Source: Bacteroidales bacterium
GTDB taxonomy: Bacteria; Bacteroidota; Bacteroidia; Bacteroidales; UBA3824
Reading direction: 5' to 3'
Assembly (NCBI GenBank): GCA_017964465.1
Contig: JAGCRY010000126.1
Span: 1,524 to 65,523, forward strand
DNA: 64,000 nt
This document shows positions 16,768 to 24,123 of this stretch, piece after piece (position 1 is the stretch's first letter; each line of letters begins with the position of its first letter). The notes beneath the pieces are model-generated. The model did no database searches and was not told the origin of the DNA. It saw only the letters and a list, made by a program, of their open reading frames with translations. A program made the translations under genes and the position numbers.

Positions 16768-17646
16768 TTAATTTTTTTTATTGCAGAGATATACGCCCGC
16801 CACTGTGATTATGCAGCCGATGATTGCATAGATCGTGATATTCTCGTCGAGGGTTATGTGGGCGGTGATGAGAGCCACTACTGGATTGAAATAGAGATAG
16901 TTAGAGGCAGTGACGATGCCGAGCCGTCGAGACACGAAACTCCATGCAAAATAGCATCCGAGCGACGCCACGAGCGCAAGGAAAATCACATTAAAAATCA
17001 CCACGCTGTCCCCTAAAATAGCCATGTCAATGTCGAAGGGTTCATATATGAAATATGGCAGAATTGTGATGACGCCCCATAAAAACACTTTCCTCGTGAT
17101 TTCGAGAGAGCCGTGCTTTTGTTCCTGAATCCTTAATAAAGTTGAATACACGCTCCAGCTCAATGCCGCAGCGATGCTGAGAATGATGACAAGCGGGTTG
17201 TCGTCGAGGACGAAAATGCCATTGAACACCACAAGCGCAGTGCCCACAATCGCCGTCACGGAGCCCAATGCAAATTTTTTCCCGAGTTTTTCATTTCGCC
17301 AAATCAGGCGGCTGATGATGGCGGTCAGTATTGGGTTTGCGCATACGATGAGCGCGACGGTCGAGGTCGCGGATGTGATTTCTACGGCGATGTTCTCAGT
17401 GACGAAATACAACGACCCGCCAGTTATGCCGAGGGCGATGAAGATAAGCTCGTCCCTCCATCCTGAAAACTTTATGTTACGCAGACAGAAAGGCAGCATT
17501 GCGAGATACGCCACTGCAAACCTAATCGTCATAATCTCCGCCGGTGACATTCCGGCGTTAAGGAGCACTTTGCTCGATGCAAATGTAGAGCCCCATACTA
17601 TTGATACCGCAAGCGCAAACAGGTGAAGCGGCCATTTTTTTGACAT
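16768..17646 (-). CDS. DMT-superfamily (EamA-type) transporter
   Basis: Ten predicted TM helices in two EamA-like halves, 292 aa. Confidence 0.8.
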   Translation of the reverse strand: MSKKWPLHLFALAVSIVWGSTFASSKVLLNAGMSPAEIMTIRFAVAYLAMLPFCLRNIKFSGWRDELIFIALGITGGSLYFVTENIAVEITSATSTVALIVCANPILTAIISRLIWRNEKLGKKFALGSVTAIVGTALVVFNGIFVLDDNPLVIILSIAAALSWSVYSTLLRIQEQKHGSLEITRKVFLWGVITILPYFIYEPFDIDMAILGDSVVIFNVIFLALVASLGCYFAWSFVSRRLGIVTASNYLYFNPVVALITAHITLDENITIYAIIGCIITVAGVYLCNKKN

Positions 17647-17818
17647 GGAGTTTATTGTTTGGATTAATAAATTTTGAGCGCAAAGGTAGTGATTGGCAAG
17701 GAAATGATAAAATTTATTCTACGAGTTTGCCATAAGAAATTCTCTTATTTTGTAGCCGAAGTATGAAAAATTAACATTCTTTAACTCTGGTTGCGGTTTC
17801 ATTTGACAAAATATGCTA

Positions 17819-17826
17819 TAACTTTG
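17819..17826 (+). promoter_or_regulatory. -7 promoter box TAACTTTG for the aromatic leader and operon
   Basis: Matches TAnnTTTG, 24 nt upstream of the leader-peptide ATG. It is flanked by the inverted repeat GGTTGC...GCAACC. Confidence 0.45.
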
Positions 17827-17849
17827 CAACCGCATAAAAAAGCAAAAGA

Positions 17850-17921
17850 ATGAACACAATATTTGGAACATATTATTACGGCTTTTACTTTGCTTACTTT
17901 GGCGACGAGGTGAGGCGGTAA
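17850..17921 (+). CDS. Phe/Tyr-rich leader peptide MNTIFGTYYYGFYFAYFGDEVRR (23 aa)
   Basis: My own translation of ATG 17850 to TAA 17919-17921. Nine of 13 residues between positions 5 and 17 are F or Y. It sits between a promoter box and a terminator hairpin, upstream of pheA and tyrA. Confidence 0.65.
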   Translation: MNTIFGTYYYGFYFAYFGDEVRR

Positions 17922-17960
17922 TTTATTGTTTCAAGTAAAAAAAGATACGACAATAGAACG

Positions 17961-17997
17961 AAAGCCTCACCTTAGAGATAAGGTGAGGCTTTTTTAT
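17961..17997 (+). terminator. Attenuator terminator hairpin (14-bp stem, GAGA loop, U-run)
   Basis: aaagcctcacctta-gaga-taaggtgaggcttt followed by ttttatt. The 9-mer AGGTGAGGC of the 3' arm also occurs at 17908-17916, inside the end of the leader ORF, so it can pair alternatively with GCCTCACCT (17964-17972). Confidence 0.75.
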
Positions 17998-18015
17998 TAC
18001 AAACACATTATAAAT

Positions 18016-18882
18016 ATGAAAGTAGCAATTCAAGGAGTCAAGGGCGCGTTCCACGAGGTGGCGGCGCGTGAATATTTCTCCGACAAGGACATCGACATCG
18101 TGGAGAAGATGACATTCGAGGAAGTTTTGAACAGTGTCGAAAACTGTGAAAACGACTACGGCCTCATTGCCATTGAAAACACCATTGCCGGCACAATCCA
18201 CGCCAACCTCAATCTCCTCAGACGCAAGGAAGTGCGCATCTGTGGCGAGATTTTCTTGCGCATCAGGCAGAACCTTGCAGTCGTTCCGGGTGTGAAAATC
18301 GAGGATCTCGAAGAAGTCCGCAGCCATTATATGGCAATCAACCAGACGAGGCAGTTTTTCCGCCAGTATCCCCACATCAAACTCGCCGAATGTCCCGACA
18401 CAGCCCTCGGTATGCGCCAGGTTGCGGAGGGCAAACTCAAAACCGTAGGTGCGATTGGCAGCACGCTCGCCGCTAAAAACTACGGTCTCGAAATCATCGC
18501 TCCGGGTATTGAAACTTTCAAGAAGAACTACACGCGCTTCATGGTCGTCAAGAACGCGATGGACAGCGGTCTCGAAGAATACAACAAGGCGTCGCTCAAC
18601 CTCATTCTGAAAAACAAAGTCGGCAGCCTCGCCCAAATCCTCAGCATCATGTCATACTATGACGTCGATTTGACAAAGGTTGAATCCATGCCGATCATGG
18701 GACAGCCGATGCAGTATATGTTCTACGTTGATGTGAAGTTCAGCGACCGCAAACAGTATCAGGACATGATAACAGCCATCCGCCCGCTTCTCAACAAAAT
18801 CCACATCCTCGGCGAATACATGGAAGGCTCAAAATCATGGGAAAAGATGCACGGCGACGACGACAAAACAACAAATCAGTAA
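18016..18882 (+). CDS. pheA: Prephenate dehydratase (PDT plus ACT domain)
   Basis: MKVAIQGVKGAFHEVAAREYF..., ENTIAGTI, and a C-terminal ACT-like block (SL..ILKNKVGSLAQILSI). ATG 18016 is preferred over track start 17926, which would read through the terminator hairpin. Confidence 0.9.
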   Translation: MKVAIQGVKGAFHEVAAREYFSDKDIDIVEKMTFEEVLNSVENCENDYGLIAIENTIAGTIHANLNLLRRKEVRICGEIFLRIRQNLAVVPGVKIEDLEEVRSHYMAINQTRQFFRQYPHIKLAECPDTALGMRQVAEGKLKTVGAIGSTLAAKNYGLEIIAPGIETFKKNYTRFMVVKNAMDSGLEEYNKASLNLILKNKVGSLAQILSIMSYYDVDLTKVESMPIMGQPMQYMFYVDVKFSDRKQYQDMITAIRPLLNKIHILGEYMEGSKSWEKMHGDDDKTTNQ

Positions 18883-18911
18883 ATCACAAATCACCAAATC
18901 AATAAATAAAA
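18880..18911 (+). repeat. G-free heptamer tract (AAATCAC-like) between pheA and tyrA
   Basis: taaatcacaaatcaccaaatcaataaataaaa contains no G and runs from the pheA stop to the tyrA GTG start. Confidence 0.85.
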
Positions 18912-19757
18912 GTGAAACTATCAATAATAGGACTTGGACTTTTGGGCAGTTGTATGGCGTTGGACTTGCGCAAGCGCAAGTTCGCCGACAAGATTTATGG
19001 CTATGATAAAAGTCCTGTAAATCAAGAATATGCGCTCCGTGTTGGGCTCATCGACGAGGGCGCGGACTCCATGGAGTCTGTCATTTCAAAAGGCGACATA
19101 ATCATTGTGGCGATACCCGTGTCGGCGGCTTTGAAAATGTTGCCGCAGATATTGGATAAAATCTCTGACAATCAGATTGTTGTCGATGTTTGCTCCACAA
19201 AACATTCGCTCTGTGAGCGCGTGAAATACCATCCAAACCGTGCGCGTTACGTGGCATGTCACCCGATGGCGGGTACTGAAAATTCAGGACCGTGGTCTGC
19301 AATTTCATGCATGTTCGATTCGAGGGCGGTGATTATGTGCGACACCGAGGATTCTGATGAGGATGCAGTGAAAATTGTACGCAAAATGTTTGAGGCGTTG
19401 AATATGAATCCCATGTTCTTCTCATCCTCAAACCACGACATCCACGTTGCATACATCTCCCACATCTCCCATGTGAGCGCATACGCACTCGCAAACACGG
19501 TTTTGGACAAGGAAAAGAATGAGAAAAACATCTTCCACCTTGCTTCCGGCGGTTTCAATTCGACTGTCCGCATCGCAAAATCAAGCGCGGACATGTGGGT
19601 GCCAATTTTCGATGACAACAAGGAAAACGTCATGACAGTTCTCAACACCTACATCGAGAATTTGCAGGAGTTCAAGCGGCTTCTCGAAACAGACGACACC
19701 GTTGGTCTGAACGAGTACATCACAAAAGCAAACCACATCCGCAAGGTTTTGAAGTAA
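18912..19757 (+). CDS. tyrA: Prephenate dehydrogenase
   Basis: N-terminal Rossmann motif IIGLGLLGS, then HPMAGTE, 281 aa, in the aromatic operon. GTG start as in the track. Confidence 0.85.
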   Translation: MKLSIIGLGLLGSCMALDLRKRKFADKIYGYDKSPVNQEYALRVGLIDEGADSMESVISKGDIIIVAIPVSAALKMLPQILDKISDNQIVVDVCSTKHSLCERVKYHPNRARYVACHPMAGTENSGPWSAISCMFDSRAVIMCDTEDSDEDAVKIVRKMFEALNMNPMFFSSSNHDIHVAYISHISHVSAYALANTVLDKEKNEKNIFHLASGGFNSTVRIAKSSADMWVPIFDDNKENVMTVLNTYIENLQEFKRLLETDDTVGLNEYITKANHIRKVLK

Positions 19758-19792
19758 TTCATAATTCGTAACTCATAATTCAATAAATTGAA
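19755..19792 (+). repeat. Heptamer tract (AATTCAT-like) between tyrA and the DAHP synthase gene
   Basis: taattcataattcgtaactcataattcaataaattgaa lies directly before ATG 19793. It has 7-nt periodicity and is nearly G-free. Confidence 0.8.
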
Positions 19793-20851
19793 ATGAAATA
19801 TTTTGCAGACATCTTCGGTGACAAGCCGTGGATAATTTCCGGCCCCTGTTCTGCCGAGACTAAAGAACAGACTTTGGAAACAGCCCGTCAGTTGGCGTCT
19901 AATGGCATAAAGGTTTTCCGTGCGGGAATTTGGAAGCCGCGCACGCGCCCGGGCAATTTTGAGGGCGTTGGAGAGATTGGTCTCGAATGGCTCCAGGATG
20001 TGAAGCGCGAGACTGGCATGTTGACCGCCACTGAGGTTGCAAACGCAAAGCATGTATGGTCGGCGATTAAAGGCGGCATCGACATCATCTGGATTGGTGC
20101 GCGTACAACGGCAAATCCGTTCATGATGCAGGACATCGCCGAGAGCCTCAAGGGTTGTAATATTCCTGTTCTCGTGAAAAACCCCGTAAACCCCGATGTT
20201 GAGTTGTGGCTTGGTGCGATTGAGCGTCTTGAGTCTGTCGGACTTAGCAAGATTGGCCTGATTCACAGGGGTTTTTCAAGCTATGAGAAGATTCTGTACC
20301 GCAATGAGCCGGGATGGAAAATTGGCATGGAAATCAAACGCCGCCGCCCCGACCTGCCGCTGTTCTGCGACCCGTCACACATCGCCGGCAAGAGGGACTA
20401 TCTTTTTGAGTTGTCGCAGAAGGCAATGGACTTGAATTTTGACGGTCTGATGATTGAATCTCACATCAACCCCGATAAAGCATGGAGCGACGCAAAGCAG
20501 CAGCTCACCCCTGCCGCACTCAAAGAGATGCTCGGCAAACTCGTTGTGCGCAAGGTTAATCCCGCAACGGCCTCCATGGAGTCTCTCAATGAATTGCGTT
20601 TCCATATCGACCAGATGGACTCCGACATTATCGACATGCTCCGCAAACGCATGGATGTCTGCGTGAAGATTGGTGAATACAAGAAGGCTAACAACATGAC
20701 CGCATTCCAGCCGTCGCGTTGGGACTCCATACTCACAAAGTATGTCGGCATGGCTAAGGAACGCGACCTCGATGAGAATTTTGTTGCTCAGGTGTTCTCC
20801 GCTATCCACGATGCGTCTGTGAACGTCCAGACCAAAGTGCTTAACAGTTAG
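19793..20851 (+). CDS. Bifunctional 3-deoxy-7-phosphoheptulonate (DAHP) synthase (type I-beta, KDO8PS-like) and chorismate mutase
   Basis: The N-terminal ~260 aa carry GPCSAE, FRAGIWKPRT and DPSH motifs. The C-terminal ~90 aa (LNELRFHIDQMDSDIIDMLRKRMDVCVKIGEYK...) look like an AroQ-type chorismate mutase. Confidence 0.88.
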   Translation: MKYFADIFGDKPWIISGPCSAETKEQTLETARQLASNGIKVFRAGIWKPRTRPGNFEGVGEIGLEWLQDVKRETGMLTATEVANAKHVWSAIKGGIDIIWIGARTTANPFMMQDIAESLKGCNIPVLVKNPVNPDVELWLGAIERLESVGLSKIGLIHRGFSSYEKILYRNEPGWKIGMEIKRRRPDLPLFCDPSHIAGKRDYLFELSQKAMDLNFDGLMIESHINPDKAWSDAKQQLTPAALKEMLGKLVVRKVNPATASMESLNELRFHIDQMDSDIIDMLRKRMDVCVKIGEYKKANNMTAFQPSRWDSILTKYVGMAKERDLDENFVAQVFSAIHDASVNVQTKVLNS

Positions 20852-20862
20852 TCTTCAAAATC

Positions 20863-21507
20863 ATGTTGTACGTATGCTTGTCGGCGGAAGGCGTGGAGAA
20901 CGCCCTCCGTCAACTTGGCGACGAGAAGTGCGCCGAGTTGCGTGTGGATTTGGTTAAGCCGTCGATGGACGAGATGGTGAAATTAGTTTCCAAAAAGGAT
21001 TTCAGTTTTATCGTGACGTGCCGTCCGGGAGTTTTCGATGAGGAGACTTCACTGAAATACTTGGCGACCGCCGCAAAACATGGCGCGGACTATATCGACA
21101 TTGAGATTGAACGCGGCGCGGAGGTTGCTTCAAGAATGAAAGCCGCCTGTGAAGGCTCGGGATGCAAATTGATTATTTCATATCATAATTTTGAATGTAC
21201 TCCGTCTTTTGAAGAGTTGAGAAAAATCATAATGGAATGTCGTGGACGCGGCGCGGATATTGTGAAAATCGCGTGCAAGGTAAATTCCACGGCAGACAAT
21301 TCAACTTTGATGTCGCTATATGGCGAAGGCGAAGGGATTGTGGCTTTCGGAATGGGGACGCTTGGTCAGGTTTCGAGGCTTGCGTCGCTTGGATGTGGAG
21401 CAAAGTTTACATACGTCGCTTCAGATTTTGGTGATGGCACTGCGCCCGGTCAGCTCAACGTTTCACAGATGAGGAGGTATGTCAATGAATTAGGAATTAA
21501 GTTGTAG
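20863..21507 (+). CDS. aroD: Type I 3-dehydroquinate dehydratase
   Basis: ELRVDL, ISYHNFECTP, DIVKIACK (catalytic Lys context), GxxGQVSR, APGQL. Confidence 0.8.
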   Translation: MLYVCLSAEGVENALRQLGDEKCAELRVDLVKPSMDEMVKLVSKKDFSFIVTCRPGVFDEETSLKYLATAAKHGADYIDIEIERGAEVASRMKAACEGSGCKLIISYHNFECTPSFEELRKIIMECRGRGADIVKIACKVNSTADNSTLMSLYGEGEGIVAFGMGTLGQVSRLASLGCGAKFTYVASDFGDGTAPGQLNVSQMRRYVNELGIKL

Positions 21508-21519
21508 TTATTATTTTTG

Positions 21520-22011
21520 TTATTTTCCTTGCGCTTGGGACGAGTTCTCGAGTGCAAGGATTTTTTGTGTATTGAGGATTGTGACGATTTTGTCCTCATG
21601 GTTATATACACCTTCCGAGAGAGAAGCGTCGATGTGGGAGTCGAAATCGTTTATTGGGATGATATCTATTGGTTTTATGCTTATTACGTCGCTGACCCTT
21701 TCTACGATTGCACCCGCAATGAGATGTAAATCAGCGTCTTCCTTGTTTGTCTCCAAAACGATTATTGCGCAATCTTCGTCGGCGACAGGCTCGTGTATGC
21801 GCGTGAGGTGGCATTTCGCCATTACGTCGATAGCCGGCAGGATTTCACCGCGAAAATTGAAAACACCTTTTATATAATGGTCACATTGTGGTATGGCGGT
21901 TATTTTTGGACGCTCTGTCACCTCCACGACGTTATTGATGCTGAATGCGTAGAGTTGGTCGTCGAGCCAAAACGACAAGTATGGAGTGGCTCCGCTGTAG
22001 TTTTCCATCAT
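21520..22011 (-). CDS. cheW: CheW-like coupling protein
   Basis: Single CheW domain: YLSFWLDDQLYAFSINNVVEV...IKGVFNFRGEILPAIDV...IAGAIVERVSDVISI...DKIVTILNTQKIL. Confidence 0.8.
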   Translation of the reverse strand: MMENYSGATPYLSFWLDDQLYAFSINNVVEVTERPKITAIPQCDHYIKGVFNFRGEILPAIDVMAKCHLTRIHEPVADEDCAIIVLETNKEDADLHLIAGAIVERVSDVISIKPIDIIPINDFDSHIDASLSEGVYNHEDKIVTILNTQKILALENSSQAQGK

Positions 22012-22032
22012 TATGCGTTTTATGGTTTTGGC

Positions 22033-24123
22033 TTATTTTTTTAGGTATTTGATGAGTTTGTTCGTGTCGAGGACGAGTGCGATGCTGCCGTCGCCAAGCA
22101 CGCTGCCGCCGGAGAGGTATTCCTGGTTGCTGAAATATTTGCCCAACGACTTCAAAACGGCTTGATGCTCGCCGTGAACCTTGTCAAGGACGATGCCGAC
22201 GCGTGAATCCTTGTATTTAACCATGACTGCAATGCGTTCTTCGGGCGGAGTTCCGCTTATATTGAAGAATGTCCTCATGTCGAGTATGGGCAGCGGCTCG
22301 CCTTCATGGATGATGCGTCCTTTACTTTCGTCAACGTCCTTGTGTCTGATGTGGATGCAACTGTCTATTACATAGACAGGTATGAGAAGTTGAGTCTCCG
22401 CCACAGAAACGAGCAGCGCATCCACGATACTTAACGTGAGGGGAAGTTTGATGGTTGTGATTGTTCCCAAATCACATTCACTGTCCATTTCAATTTCTCC
22501 ACGAAGTTTCATGATGCTTTGTTTCACAGCGTCCATGCCTACTCCACGCCCTGAGATGCCTGTGATTTTCTGCGCCGTGGAGAATCCGGGCAGGAAAACG
22601 AGGTCGAAAAGTTGGCGGTTTGTGGGATGGTCGGTGGCTTTTATGAAGTTTTTTTCTATAGCCTTTTTCCTTAGGTATTCCGGGTTCATGCCTGCTCCGT
22701 CGTCCTGGACTTGGATGAAGACATTGTTTCCAGAATAGAACGCCGTGAATTTTATGATGCCGTGGTCGGGCTTTTTGAGTTCCCTTCGGCGTTCCACGGA
22801 TTCAATTCCATGGTCGATGCTGTTGCGGATGATGTGCATGAGGGGCACGGCGAGGTTGTCGATTATGGTCTTGTCGAGTTCCGTGTCTGTGCCTTCTGTC
22901 ACGAAGTCCACTTGTTTGCCGAGTTCTTTTGAAAGGTCGCGCACAAGCCTCTGAAATCTCAACATCAGGCTTTCAATAGGCACAAGACGTATAGACAAGG
23001 CGTTGTCTTTCAGTTTGTTTGAAAGTTTGTCAACCTTTTCGTAGATGTCGTGGAGTTCAGGAATGTCATATTTGTCGGCGATGAGAAGCATCTCCGCCTT
23101 TGTGTTCACAAACTCCGAGACGAGGTTCATCAGTTCGTCGAGTTTTTCGGAATCGACCTTTATGCCTGAATTTTTCGTGTCTGACGCCTCGATGTTTTTT
23201 GCAATGATTTTGCGCTCCGACTCTGCATTGTGGTTTGGTGCTGCGACGGGCACAGGTTGCTGGATTTGAGGCGGTTGGGGCTGTTGTGGTTCTGTGGATT
23301 CCGGCTGTTGAGGTTGGAGCAGTTGAGAGATTGCTTTGAGTTCGGCTGTGTCAATCGGGGTTTCTATGAGTTGGTATGTGGCGAGTTGCTCTTTGAAATC
23401 CTCACTTGAAAACAGGTCAATGTCGGCGATTTTTTCGAGTTTGACCTCGTCATGGACAAACAGGAAAATTTCTTCGAGTTCATTGAAAGGCAGTTCAGTG
23501 GCGAACACAGCCTCCCAATACATGTAGAACTTTCCATTGTCCGCCTGGTCGTCGCGCCATGAACGTGTGAAAATCGTGTTTTCACCGAGATCCTTGATGC
23601 TGTTCAGTATTCCTTTTATGTTCACGCCACGGTTTGTGATGTCGGCTTCCGGCGCAAACATCATGTAATATGTGCAGATGTTTTTTTGGGGAGGAAGGTC
23701 GCCGCCGTTTTGTGAAGTGTTATTGGATTGTGTGCGGTTGTCAGTGCCATTTATCGCCGCAACCCGTGCCAAAAAGTCGTTCACAAGCGCATCGTCGCCG
23801 TCCTCTGGCTGGTTCAGAAGATGGCGTAACAAGTCCACGCACTCGAGGGTCAGTGTGCTAACGTCCTTGCTTACTGAGCCTTGGGTGTCGCGAATCTTGC
23901 TGTAGATACTTTCAACGTCGTGGGTTATCTTTTCGACAGTCTTGAAGTCGTACATCGCGCTTGTTCCCTTGATGGTGTGCATCACTCGGAACACTTGGTT
24001 TATCTCGTCGATGCTGGATGGGTTTTGCTCCAATGTGAGAATCGCCCCTTCCATTTCGTTGAGCATGTCGTTGACTTCCTCGACGTATTTGAGTTTGAAT
24101 TGCTGTAAAGACGGCTGTGACAT
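22033..24123 (-). CDS. cheA: CheA-type histidine kinase (Hpt, unknown ~170-aa region, Q/P linker, dimerisation domain, HATPase, CheW-like domain)
   Basis: Hpt phospho-site context FRVMHTIKGTSAMY. Dimerisation region IKVDSEKLDELMNLVSEFV. ATP-binding boxes HIIRNSIDHGIE, DDGAGM, GFST, GRGVGMD. C-terminal CheW-like domain LLVSVAETQLLIPVYVIDS...GSIALVLDTNKL. Confidence 0.85.
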   Translation of the reverse strand: MSQPSLQQFKLKYVEEVNDMLNEMEGAILTLEQNPSSIDEINQVFRVMHTIKGTSAMYDFKTVEKITHDVESIYSKIRDTQGSVSKDVSTLTLECVDLLRHLLNQPEDGDDALVNDFLARVAAINGTDNRTQSNNTSQNGGDLPPQKNICTYYMMFAPEADITNRGVNIKGILNSIKDLGENTIFTRSWRDDQADNGKFYMYWEAVFATELPFNELEEIFLFVHDEVKLEKIADIDLFSSEDFKEQLATYQLIETPIDTAELKAISQLLQPQQPESTEPQQPQPPQIQQPVPVAAPNHNAESERKIIAKNIEASDTKNSGIKVDSEKLDELMNLVSEFVNTKAEMLLIADKYDIPELHDIYEKVDKLSNKLKDNALSIRLVPIESLMLRFQRLVRDLSKELGKQVDFVTEGTDTELDKTIIDNLAVPLMHIIRNSIDHGIESVERRRELKKPDHGIIKFTAFYSGNNVFIQVQDDGAGMNPEYLRKKAIEKNFIKATDHPTNRQLFDLVFLPGFSTAQKITGISGRGVGMDAVKQSIMKLRGEIEMDSECDLGTITTIKLPLTLSIVDALLVSVAETQLLIPVYVIDSCIHIRHKDVDESKGRIIHEGEPLPILDMRTFFNISGTPPEERIAVMVKYKDSRVGIVLDKVHGEHQAVLKSLGKYFSNQEYLSGGSVLGDGSIALVLDTNKLIKYLKK

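Follow-up and report, generated by a model that had tools for sequence, protein, structure and literature searches.

A putative Phe/Tyr leader-peptide attenuator upstream of the pheA operon of an uncultured rumen Bacteroidales bacterium

Why would an operon for aromatic amino acid biosynthesis carry an intrinsic terminator 19 nt before its first start codon, directly behind a short open reading frame (ORF) crowded with Phe and Tyr codons? This question is raised by the intergenic region upstream of pheA in a 64-kb stretch of contig JAGCRY010000126.1 (64,000 nt; the window), which comes from the metagenome-assembled genome (MAG) of an uncultured rumen Bacteroidales bacterium. An original prediction, made from the DNA letters and their translations, had read positions 17819 to 17997 as a leader peptide and attenuator in front of a pheA-tyrA-DAHPS/CM-aroD operon. 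We examined this element by folding its RNA under ribosome masks and by comparing it with related loci. We conclude, with a probability of roughly 85%, that it is a ribosome-mediated Phe/Tyr leader-peptide transcription attenuator. All features of the element described below lie on the plus strand.

The leader peptide and its alternative helices

The predicted leader ORF is present at 17850 to 17921 and encodes the 23-codon peptide MNTIFGTYYYGFYFAYFGDEVRR, with 4 Phe and 5 Tyr. It has the highest density of Phe, Tyr, and Trp (F/Y/W) among the 1007 small ATG ORFs of the window. Phe and Tyr together make up 9/23 of its codons, in an operon that encodes enzymes of both the Phe branch (prephenate dehydratase) and the Tyr branch (prephenate dehydrogenase), so the argument that mixed codons fit an operon making both amino acids holds. 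The regulatory codons (F5, Y8, Y9, Y10, F12, Y13, F14, Y16, and F17) span 17862 to 17900, and the same run doubles as segment 1 of the RNA, which pairs with segment 2. The start codon is preceded by an A-rich stretch and by no Shine-Dalgarno sequence. Upstream of it, a Bacteroidota-type -7 promoter box, TAacTTTG, lies at 17819 to 17826, where it had been predicted, and is the sole TAnnTTTG within 17650-17860. We infer a transcription start near 17832, about 6 nt past this box; in Flavobacterium psychrophilum a mapped start lies 6 nt past the same motif (PMC9723704). A sigma-70 promoter scan found 11 promoters versus a shuffle expectation of 8.3 (standard deviation [SD], 2.5), which is within about 1 SD and is uninformative for the Bacteroidota.

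The terminator also has the form claimed for it. It is a perfect 14-bp inverted repeat (17961-17974/17979-17992) with a 4-nt loop, followed by TTTTTTATT ending at 17997, and it has a hairpin energy of -22.2 kcal/mol; from its end to the pheA ATG (18016) there are 19 nt. Its 5' arm is segment 3 (AAAGCCTCACCTTA, 17961-17974), which also serves as the 3' arm of the antiterminator, while segment 4 (TAAGGTGAGGCTTT) and the U-tract form the 3' arm and release site (17979-17997). A generic terminator scanner filed this stem under the minus strand only, which we judged a quirk of the tool, the contiguous T-run being on the plus strand.

What ties the leader to the terminator is a repeated 9-mer, AGGTGAGGC, which occurs at 17908 and 17981 and has its complement at 17964. 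As the original prediction stated, both copies can pair with the same complement; the three sites are the sole matches on either strand of the 64 kb, versus 0.22 expected by shuffling, and 0/100 shuffles reached 3. Moreover, a 24-nt direct repeat (17893-17916 versus 17966-17989, 75% identity) indicates that the leader ends in a degenerate copy of the terminator hairpin, with segment 1 resembling segment 3 and segment 2 resembling segment 4. The region from 17835 to 18015 has a folding energy of -52.3 kcal/mol, compared with -24.5 ± 3.4 kcal/mol for dinucleotide shuffles (z = -8.3).

The upstream copy of the 9-mer belongs to segment 2 (GAGGTGAGGC, 17907-17916), the last leader codons (E-V-R-R), which is the 5' arm of the antiterminator and ends 4 nt before the end of the stop codon. 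The duplex of 17907-17916 with 17964-17973, the 2:3 helix, has an energy of -19.8 kcal/mol. The original account had three segments. In the folds there are four, as a leader (anti-antiterminator) hairpin at 17860-17937 also sequesters the first AGGTGAGGC copy. Its outer stem (17860-17870/17927-17937) joins the N-terminal codons to the segment just past the stop, and its inner stem (17875-17885/17912-17922) joins the F/Y codons to segment 2. At -27.8 kcal/mol, it is part of the minimum-energy fold; in the folding, the 1:2 helix has no clear stability advantage over the 2:3 helix. As modeled, then, the element is a classical four-segment attenuator. A spacer hairpin at approximately 17924-17957 would reuse the post-stop segment once the antiterminator forms; it is weak (-3.6 to -8.5 kcal/mol) yet recurrent in relatives.

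We evaluated where a ribosome would permit each helix by folding the RNA cut at 17975, when segment 3 is out and segment 4 is not, with the ribosome masking positions -15 to +12 of the A site. When any codon from F5 to Y16 occupies the A site, segment 2 is free and pairs with GCCTCACCT to form the 2:3 helix, whereas a ribosome positioned at F17 or the stop codon blocks it. The masks thus reproduced the proposed logic for both alternative structures: a ribosome at the stop codon covers the first 9-mer copy, so that no antiterminator forms, and a ribosome stalled at the early Tyr/Phe codons frees that copy, which holds for F5 to Y16 and not for F17. Furthermore, the 2:3 helix covers the terminator 5' arm save its last base, beside the loop, and so leaves little toehold for the terminator.

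In the mechanism that we propose, expression of the operon (dehydratase, dehydrogenase, DAHP synthase-chorismate mutase, and dehydroquinase) would be tied to how much charged tRNA-Phe and tRNA-Tyr is available. Transcription would begin near 17832, and the 23-codon leader would be translated as RNA polymerase proceeds. With ample Phe and Tyr, the ribosome would reach the stop codon (17919) and cover segment 2; segment 3 would then pair with segment 4, and the 14-bp hairpin and U-tract would release a transcript of ~165 nt. When Phe-tRNA or Tyr-tRNA is scarce, a stall in codons 5 to 16 would open the leader hairpin and expose segment 2, which would pair with segment 3 upon its emergence; nearly all of the terminator 5' arm would thereby be occupied, and polymerase would read through into the operon. 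If the leader were not translated, the leader hairpin would keep segment 2, and termination would be the likely default.

Two side observations concern the composition of the leader. All four of its Phe codons are TTT, while seven genes of the window favor TTC (105 versus 44); possible reasons for this bias are pairing with the G-rich segment 2, the AT-rich intergenic composition, and slower decoding. In addition, an A-tract in the predicted 5' untranslated region (UTR), ATAAAAAAGC (17834-17843), perfectly complements GCTTTTTTAT (17988-17997), the U-tract of the terminator, 144 nt apart. This complementarity is probably a by-product of having an A-rich initiation region and a U-tract; as modeled, it would stabilize the read-through fold.

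Conservation across the Bacteroidota and the alternatives

The comparison set consisted of 80 Bacteroidota loci that encode dehydratase relatives at 43-98% identity, with each species represented by one genome. We counted as a leader any ATG ORF of 8 to 35 amino acids with at least 6 F/Y/W within 330 nt upstream, and 74 loci were testable. Such an F/Y(/W)-rich ORF precedes the dehydratase gene in 67/74 loci, compared with 9/74 of the reverse complements and 9/74 of the shuffled sequences. Raising the cutoff to at least 8 F/Y/W gave 49 loci versus 2 in controls. A terminator and an F/Y/W ORF were both present in 70/77 loci.

These counts bear on the possibility that the terminator is simply constitutive and leaky, or a leftover bidirectional one, with an ORF adjacent by chance and no amino acid sensing. 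AT-rich intergenic DNA (32% G+C here) does readily give Phe and Tyr codons, as the 9/74 controls that reach 6 F/Y/W attest. On the other hand, no convergent gene requires a terminator at this site, the three 9-mer copies are far above chance, and most of 70 loci from across the phylum combine the ORF with the terminator and with a leader tail complementary to the terminator arm, accompanied by covariation. We regard a chance arrangement as extremely improbable.

The close clade of the window comprises 20 sequences, and its geometry is nearly fixed: the leader stop lies 68 to 79 nt from the end of the T-run, and the end of the T-run lies 12 to 28 nt from the dehydratase start. A TAnnTTTG box stands upstream of the leader start in 20/20 close-clade leader-bearing relatives, 8 to 35 nt from box end to start codon. 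The shortest distance is that of locus L003 (2825-2840), where the leader ATG comes just 8 nt past a TAacTTTG box; judging from the sequence, its leader mRNA would be leaderless or almost leaderless.

Leader translation would not be needed if a protein or a tRNA bound the UAY/UUY triplets themselves and so controlled the terminator, as happens with TRAP or a T-box. The regulatory run is indeed a series of periodic U-rich triplets beside an antiterminator/terminator pair. However, 67 of the 74 testable loci keep a start codon (ATG, or GTG in one relative), an uninterrupted frame, and a stop codon that falls on segment 2 or close to it, and gaps in the close-clade alignment of the leader ORF come in multiples of three. 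The spacing and number of the triplets, by comparison, vary between clades, and neither the window region nor the 20 related loci match a T-box or other Rfam family. Direct binding is therefore highly improbable in our view, although slightly less so than a chance arrangement.

The pairing that attenuation by a ribosome would require is conserved. Across the 20 relatives, 95.3% of the cells of the 2:3 helix are paired, and 0/500 column shuffles matched either the pairing value or the covariation score. One 2:3 pair shows a double change, U-A to C-G, in 7 of the 20 sequences, and this turns a Val of the peptide into Ala. The change apparently arose twice (in L007 and in the L015 group); this judgment comes not from a tree but from the alignment, where L007 resembles L006 and L008. 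With segment 4, the same segment-3 base often makes a mere G-U wobble. Since the Val-to-Ala change keeps the 2:3 pair while this base is often only G-U paired with segment 4, the constraint lies on RNA pairing and not on the peptide.

The other helices are conserved to differing degrees. The terminator stem (3:4) is 88% paired across the aligned relatives, and the outer stem of the leader hairpin is 77% paired, with 5 pairs changed on both sides (observed values reached by 0-1/500 shuffles). Folded singly, 20/20 relatives are predicted to form the leader hairpin. From a MAFFT alignment of the leader part, RNAalifold obtained no consensus structure, the register of the 1:2 pairing being different from one subclade to another; instead, each sequence was folded on its own and helices were specified by hand.

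Beyond the close clade, the terminator arm varies (GCCTCACC, GTCTCGGGG, GTCCCGG, ATCCTGCTCA, GCCCAGCC, and others), and the 9-mer itself, whose two copies had been expected to persist in orthologs along with the F/Y run, is not kept across clades. What is kept, besides the F/Y ORF, is the complementarity. When the 137 nt upstream were searched for the best complement of the terminator 5' arm, it was centered on the leader tail in 59/70 loci, versus 23 expected under a uniform distribution, and 39 of these 59 had a duplex energy with P ≤ 0.05 relative to random windows of the same locus. As the arm's complement stays on the leader tail, the tail of the peptide varies with the RNA pairing (EVRR, PRLYGII, KKPGR, PGVVCVN).

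This variation is informative about a further alternative, in which a nascent arrest peptide would sense free Phe or Tyr within the ribosome, as TnaC does Trp. A conserved aromatic-rich nascent chain would suit such a peptide, except that its C-terminal part, which at termination would sit at the peptidyl-transferase center and in the exit tunnel, is not conserved as peptide and follows the RNA pairing. The polarity would also be wrong, because arrest when the amino acid is abundant would turn a biosynthetic operon on. We consider an arrest peptide the least probable of the alternatives.

Several points weigh against ribosome-mediated attenuation as proposed here. A ribosome stalled at F17 would cover some of segment 2 and would not be expected to antiterminate. 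At equilibrium, the full-length RNA adopts the terminator in every mask state, so antitermination must be kinetic, as also holds for E. coli trp. The ribosome-free RNA cut at 17975 prefers the 2:3 helix (-32.3 kcal/mol versus about -28 kcal/mol for the leader hairpin). Thermodynamics thus cannot settle the default state of an untranslated leader, which depends on the persistence of the leader hairpin. The inner 1:2 pairing, at 82-85% in two registers across the 20 relatives, shows weak covariation, which is to be expected because U-rich codons pair with a G-rich strand via G-U, and a double change was seen at just one 2:3 pair within the close clade. Finally, the support in this organism comes from sequence and folding, and the source is the MAG of an uncultured rumen organism.

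Some relatives differ from the window in the number and content of their leaders. Two complete attenuators in series, each with an F/Y/W-rich ORF and its own terminator, precede the dehydratase gene in 28/73 Bacteroidota loci. An example is L025:2660-2957 (Ancylomarina euxinus), and the 27 others include L026-L046, L049, L056, L057, L067-L069, L073, L075, and L076. The clade of the window has a single attenuator unit. Trp codons also occur in the leaders of 21/66 loci (L024-L046 and others), for example, MSYNYFFYFWFFYF, and are absent from the window leader. Their presence suggests that such leaders would sense Phe, Tyr, and Trp alike, in keeping with the operon's DAHP synthase.

We lean toward the broader view that Phe and Tyr (often also Trp) attenuators before the Bacteroidota dehydratase operon form a phylum-wide RNA family without an Rfam model, with two complete units in series in ~40% of the sampled lineages. 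If so, the tandem attenuators would give a steeper or a two-input response, and the pheA leader family would be a natural test bed for transcription-translation coupling in the Bacteroidota, where translation initiation is not known to be led by Shine-Dalgarno sequences. The ~70 loci, with their conserved geometry, antiterminator covariation, and many tandem units, would be enough to seed a curated Bacteroidota pheA-leader family.

The aromatic operon and its neighbors

Pfam agrees with the predicted identity of the four genes, all on the plus strand. The first encodes prephenate dehydratase (pheA, 18016-18882; PF00800 [PDT], E = 7.7e-52), and Bacteroidales homologs of its product carry that name. 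It is followed by prephenate dehydrogenase (18912-19757; PF02153 and PF20463 [PDH_N/PDH_C]), for which the ORF tool predicted a GTG start, by a DAHP synthase-chorismate mutase fusion of the common aromatic pathway (19793-20851; PF00793 and PF01817 [DAHP_synth_1+CM_2]), and by a type I 3-dehydroquinase (20863-21507; PF01487 [DHquinase_I]). By its Pfam content, the pheA of the window is thus a monofunctional dehydratase, with chorismate mutase fused to DAHP synthase instead. The terminator scan placed a strong intrinsic terminator at the end of the operon (21526-21560, plus strand), a 15-bp stem followed by TTTTTTGTGT. No second attenuator-like site was found when the whole window was scanned for terminators directly before genes. 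In most of the related loci, dehydrogenase and DAHP synthase/chorismate mutase genes likewise lie downstream of the leader. This uncultured rumen bacterium's operon for Phe and Tyr biosynthesis is in this way assigned a probable regulatory mechanism.

Upstream, the neighbor identified by Pfam is an EamA-family transporter gene on the minus strand (16768-17646), divergent from the attenuator. Since this gene sits on the opposite strand, the 369-bp intergenic region must hold divergent promoters, and the hairpin at 17961-17997 can act only on transcripts begun within that region, not as the terminator for a gene further upstream. Some EamA-family members, such as E. coli YddG, export aromatic amino acids. 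We set aside the idea of an operon-linked aromatic amino acid exporter, as the transporter gene is retained as a neighbor in the three closest relatives only.

The nearest public sequences are rumen Bacteroidales MAGs, with dehydratase identity of 98%. Identity to the two closest genomes (L001 and L003, respectively) changes along the operon: it is 98 and 87% for the dehydratase, 98.5 and 70% for the dehydrogenase, 86 and 95% for the DAHP synthase-chorismate mutase, and 67 and 83% for the dehydroquinase. This mosaic (16768-21507) suggests either recombination among related rumen species or a chimeric MAG assembly. Downstream, CheW and CheA-like chemotaxis genes adjoin the operon on the minus strand (21520-24123, Pfam); chemotaxis genes such as these are unusual in the Bacteroidales.

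Comparison with known systems

The element shares its logic with the E. coli/gammaproteobacterial pheL-pheA leader (PMC3082878), as the original prediction held. Both have a short leader ORF rich in codons for an end product of the operon, 1:2, 2:3, and 3:4 helices that exclude one another (as predicted in the window), an intrinsic terminator immediately upstream of pheA, and a stop codon sited so that the terminating ribosome masks segment 2. They differ in that the regulatory codons of pheL are Phe only, whereas the window leader has Phe and Tyr; in that pheA of E. coli encodes chorismate mutase fused to dehydratase and is transcribed alone, whereas the window has a four-gene operon with the Tyr branch and DAHP synthase; and in that the window has a Bacteroidota-type promoter and a leader start without a Shine-Dalgarno sequence. 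The likeness does not extend to membership in the Rfam family. In a permissive-threshold search of 17000-19000 (2 kb), Phe_leader (RF01859) scored 24.7 bits (E = 0.28), below its gathering score of 55, so the element is not a member of the E. coli-type Phe_leader. At gathering thresholds, no Rfam family, including Phe_leader, Bacteroid-trp, and T-box, was found in the 20 related loci.

The top match of the 2-kb search, itself below threshold, was a Bacteroides small RNA (sRNA), BTnc231 (RF04180; 29.2 bits, E = 0.0018), located at 5,366,995-5,367,200 in B. thetaiotaomicron according to the supplements. A second sRNA family, BTnc060, reached 25 bits, also below threshold, in 17000-19000. Units of this size with a promoter and a terminator are often labeled intergenic sRNAs (PMC7366714), and the ~165-nt terminated transcript could thus be imagined as mainly a trans-acting sRNA of the Bacteroides type, with the mini-ORF incidental or the RNA dual-function. 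We rejected BTnc231 as a relative. Its score falls far below the gathering threshold of 80.4, the match rests on the terminator and on A/U-rich stretches, and its small ORFs are not F/Y-rich leaders (e.g., VEVVRLPFFSS). Moreover, the element always directly precedes the dehydratase gene, on that gene's strand, and the leader frame and F/Y content are kept while the nucleotides drift. An sRNA as the main product is very unlikely, if the least so of the alternatives considered here. Reading the element as an attenuator would correct the likely annotation of this leader stretch as "intergenic," or as an sRNA were the transcript detected.

Bacteroid-trp (RF01692), a leader that contains Trp codons, gave no match in 17000-19000 even at E ≤ 10. 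It is a leader-peptide attenuator of an aromatic operon in the Bacteroidota (Weinberg et al. 2010, PMC2864571) and shows that the mechanism is accepted for the phylum; it precedes the trp operon (trpE in F. psychrophilum; PMC9723704). For tandem attenuators there is a parallel in the Salmonella mgtCBR leader, which has two leader ORFs in series before one operon (PMC3641672). This likeness concerns the tandem relatives only, as the window has a single unit, and the signals and operon of mgtCBR are different. Attenuators in Bacteroidetes/Chlorobi were reportedly predicted by Vitreschak and colleagues in 2004.

The closest counterpart is in the same phylum. The pheA-aspC3 mRNA of F. psychrophilum carries a leader-peptide attenuation element with a 27-amino-acid leader, MNTNNTFYSNNSFYFYWNIGRDCYMVI (Guerin et al. 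2021, PMC9723704, Table S7, SI D9), and RNA sequencing there showed condition-dependent read-through; this 5' element is conserved in the Flavobacteriaceae and absent from Rfam (PMC9723704). Like the element of the window, it lies directly upstream of prephenate dehydratase as the first gene and has a TAnnTTTG-type promoter, an A-rich 5' UTR of ~18-20 nt, and an ORF that starts with ATGAACACA (MNT...). Both leaders have mixed aromatic codons (Phe, Tyr, and Trp in F. psychrophilum, without Trp in the window), both have a tail that complements the terminator 5' arm (a duplex of -14.8 kcal/mol in F. psychrophilum), and the elements are of similar length (171 nt versus ~165 nt). They differ in that nucleotide identity is low beyond the start region and the terminator sequence is different, and in that an aminotransferase gene follows pheA in F. 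psychrophilum, whereas in the window the dehydrogenase directly follows and dehydroquinase is added. The two share a layout, in sequences too short and divergent to prove either common ancestry or the same design arrived at separately. On the evidence of sequence and modeled folds, the window thus almost certainly holds a real but ordinary ribosome-sensed attenuator, with a mechanism well supported in silico. It is ordinary because its kind has already been described in Flavobacterium; the mechanism is a textbook one, and a specialist who knows the same design from there would not be surprised to meet it in the rumen Bacteroidales.

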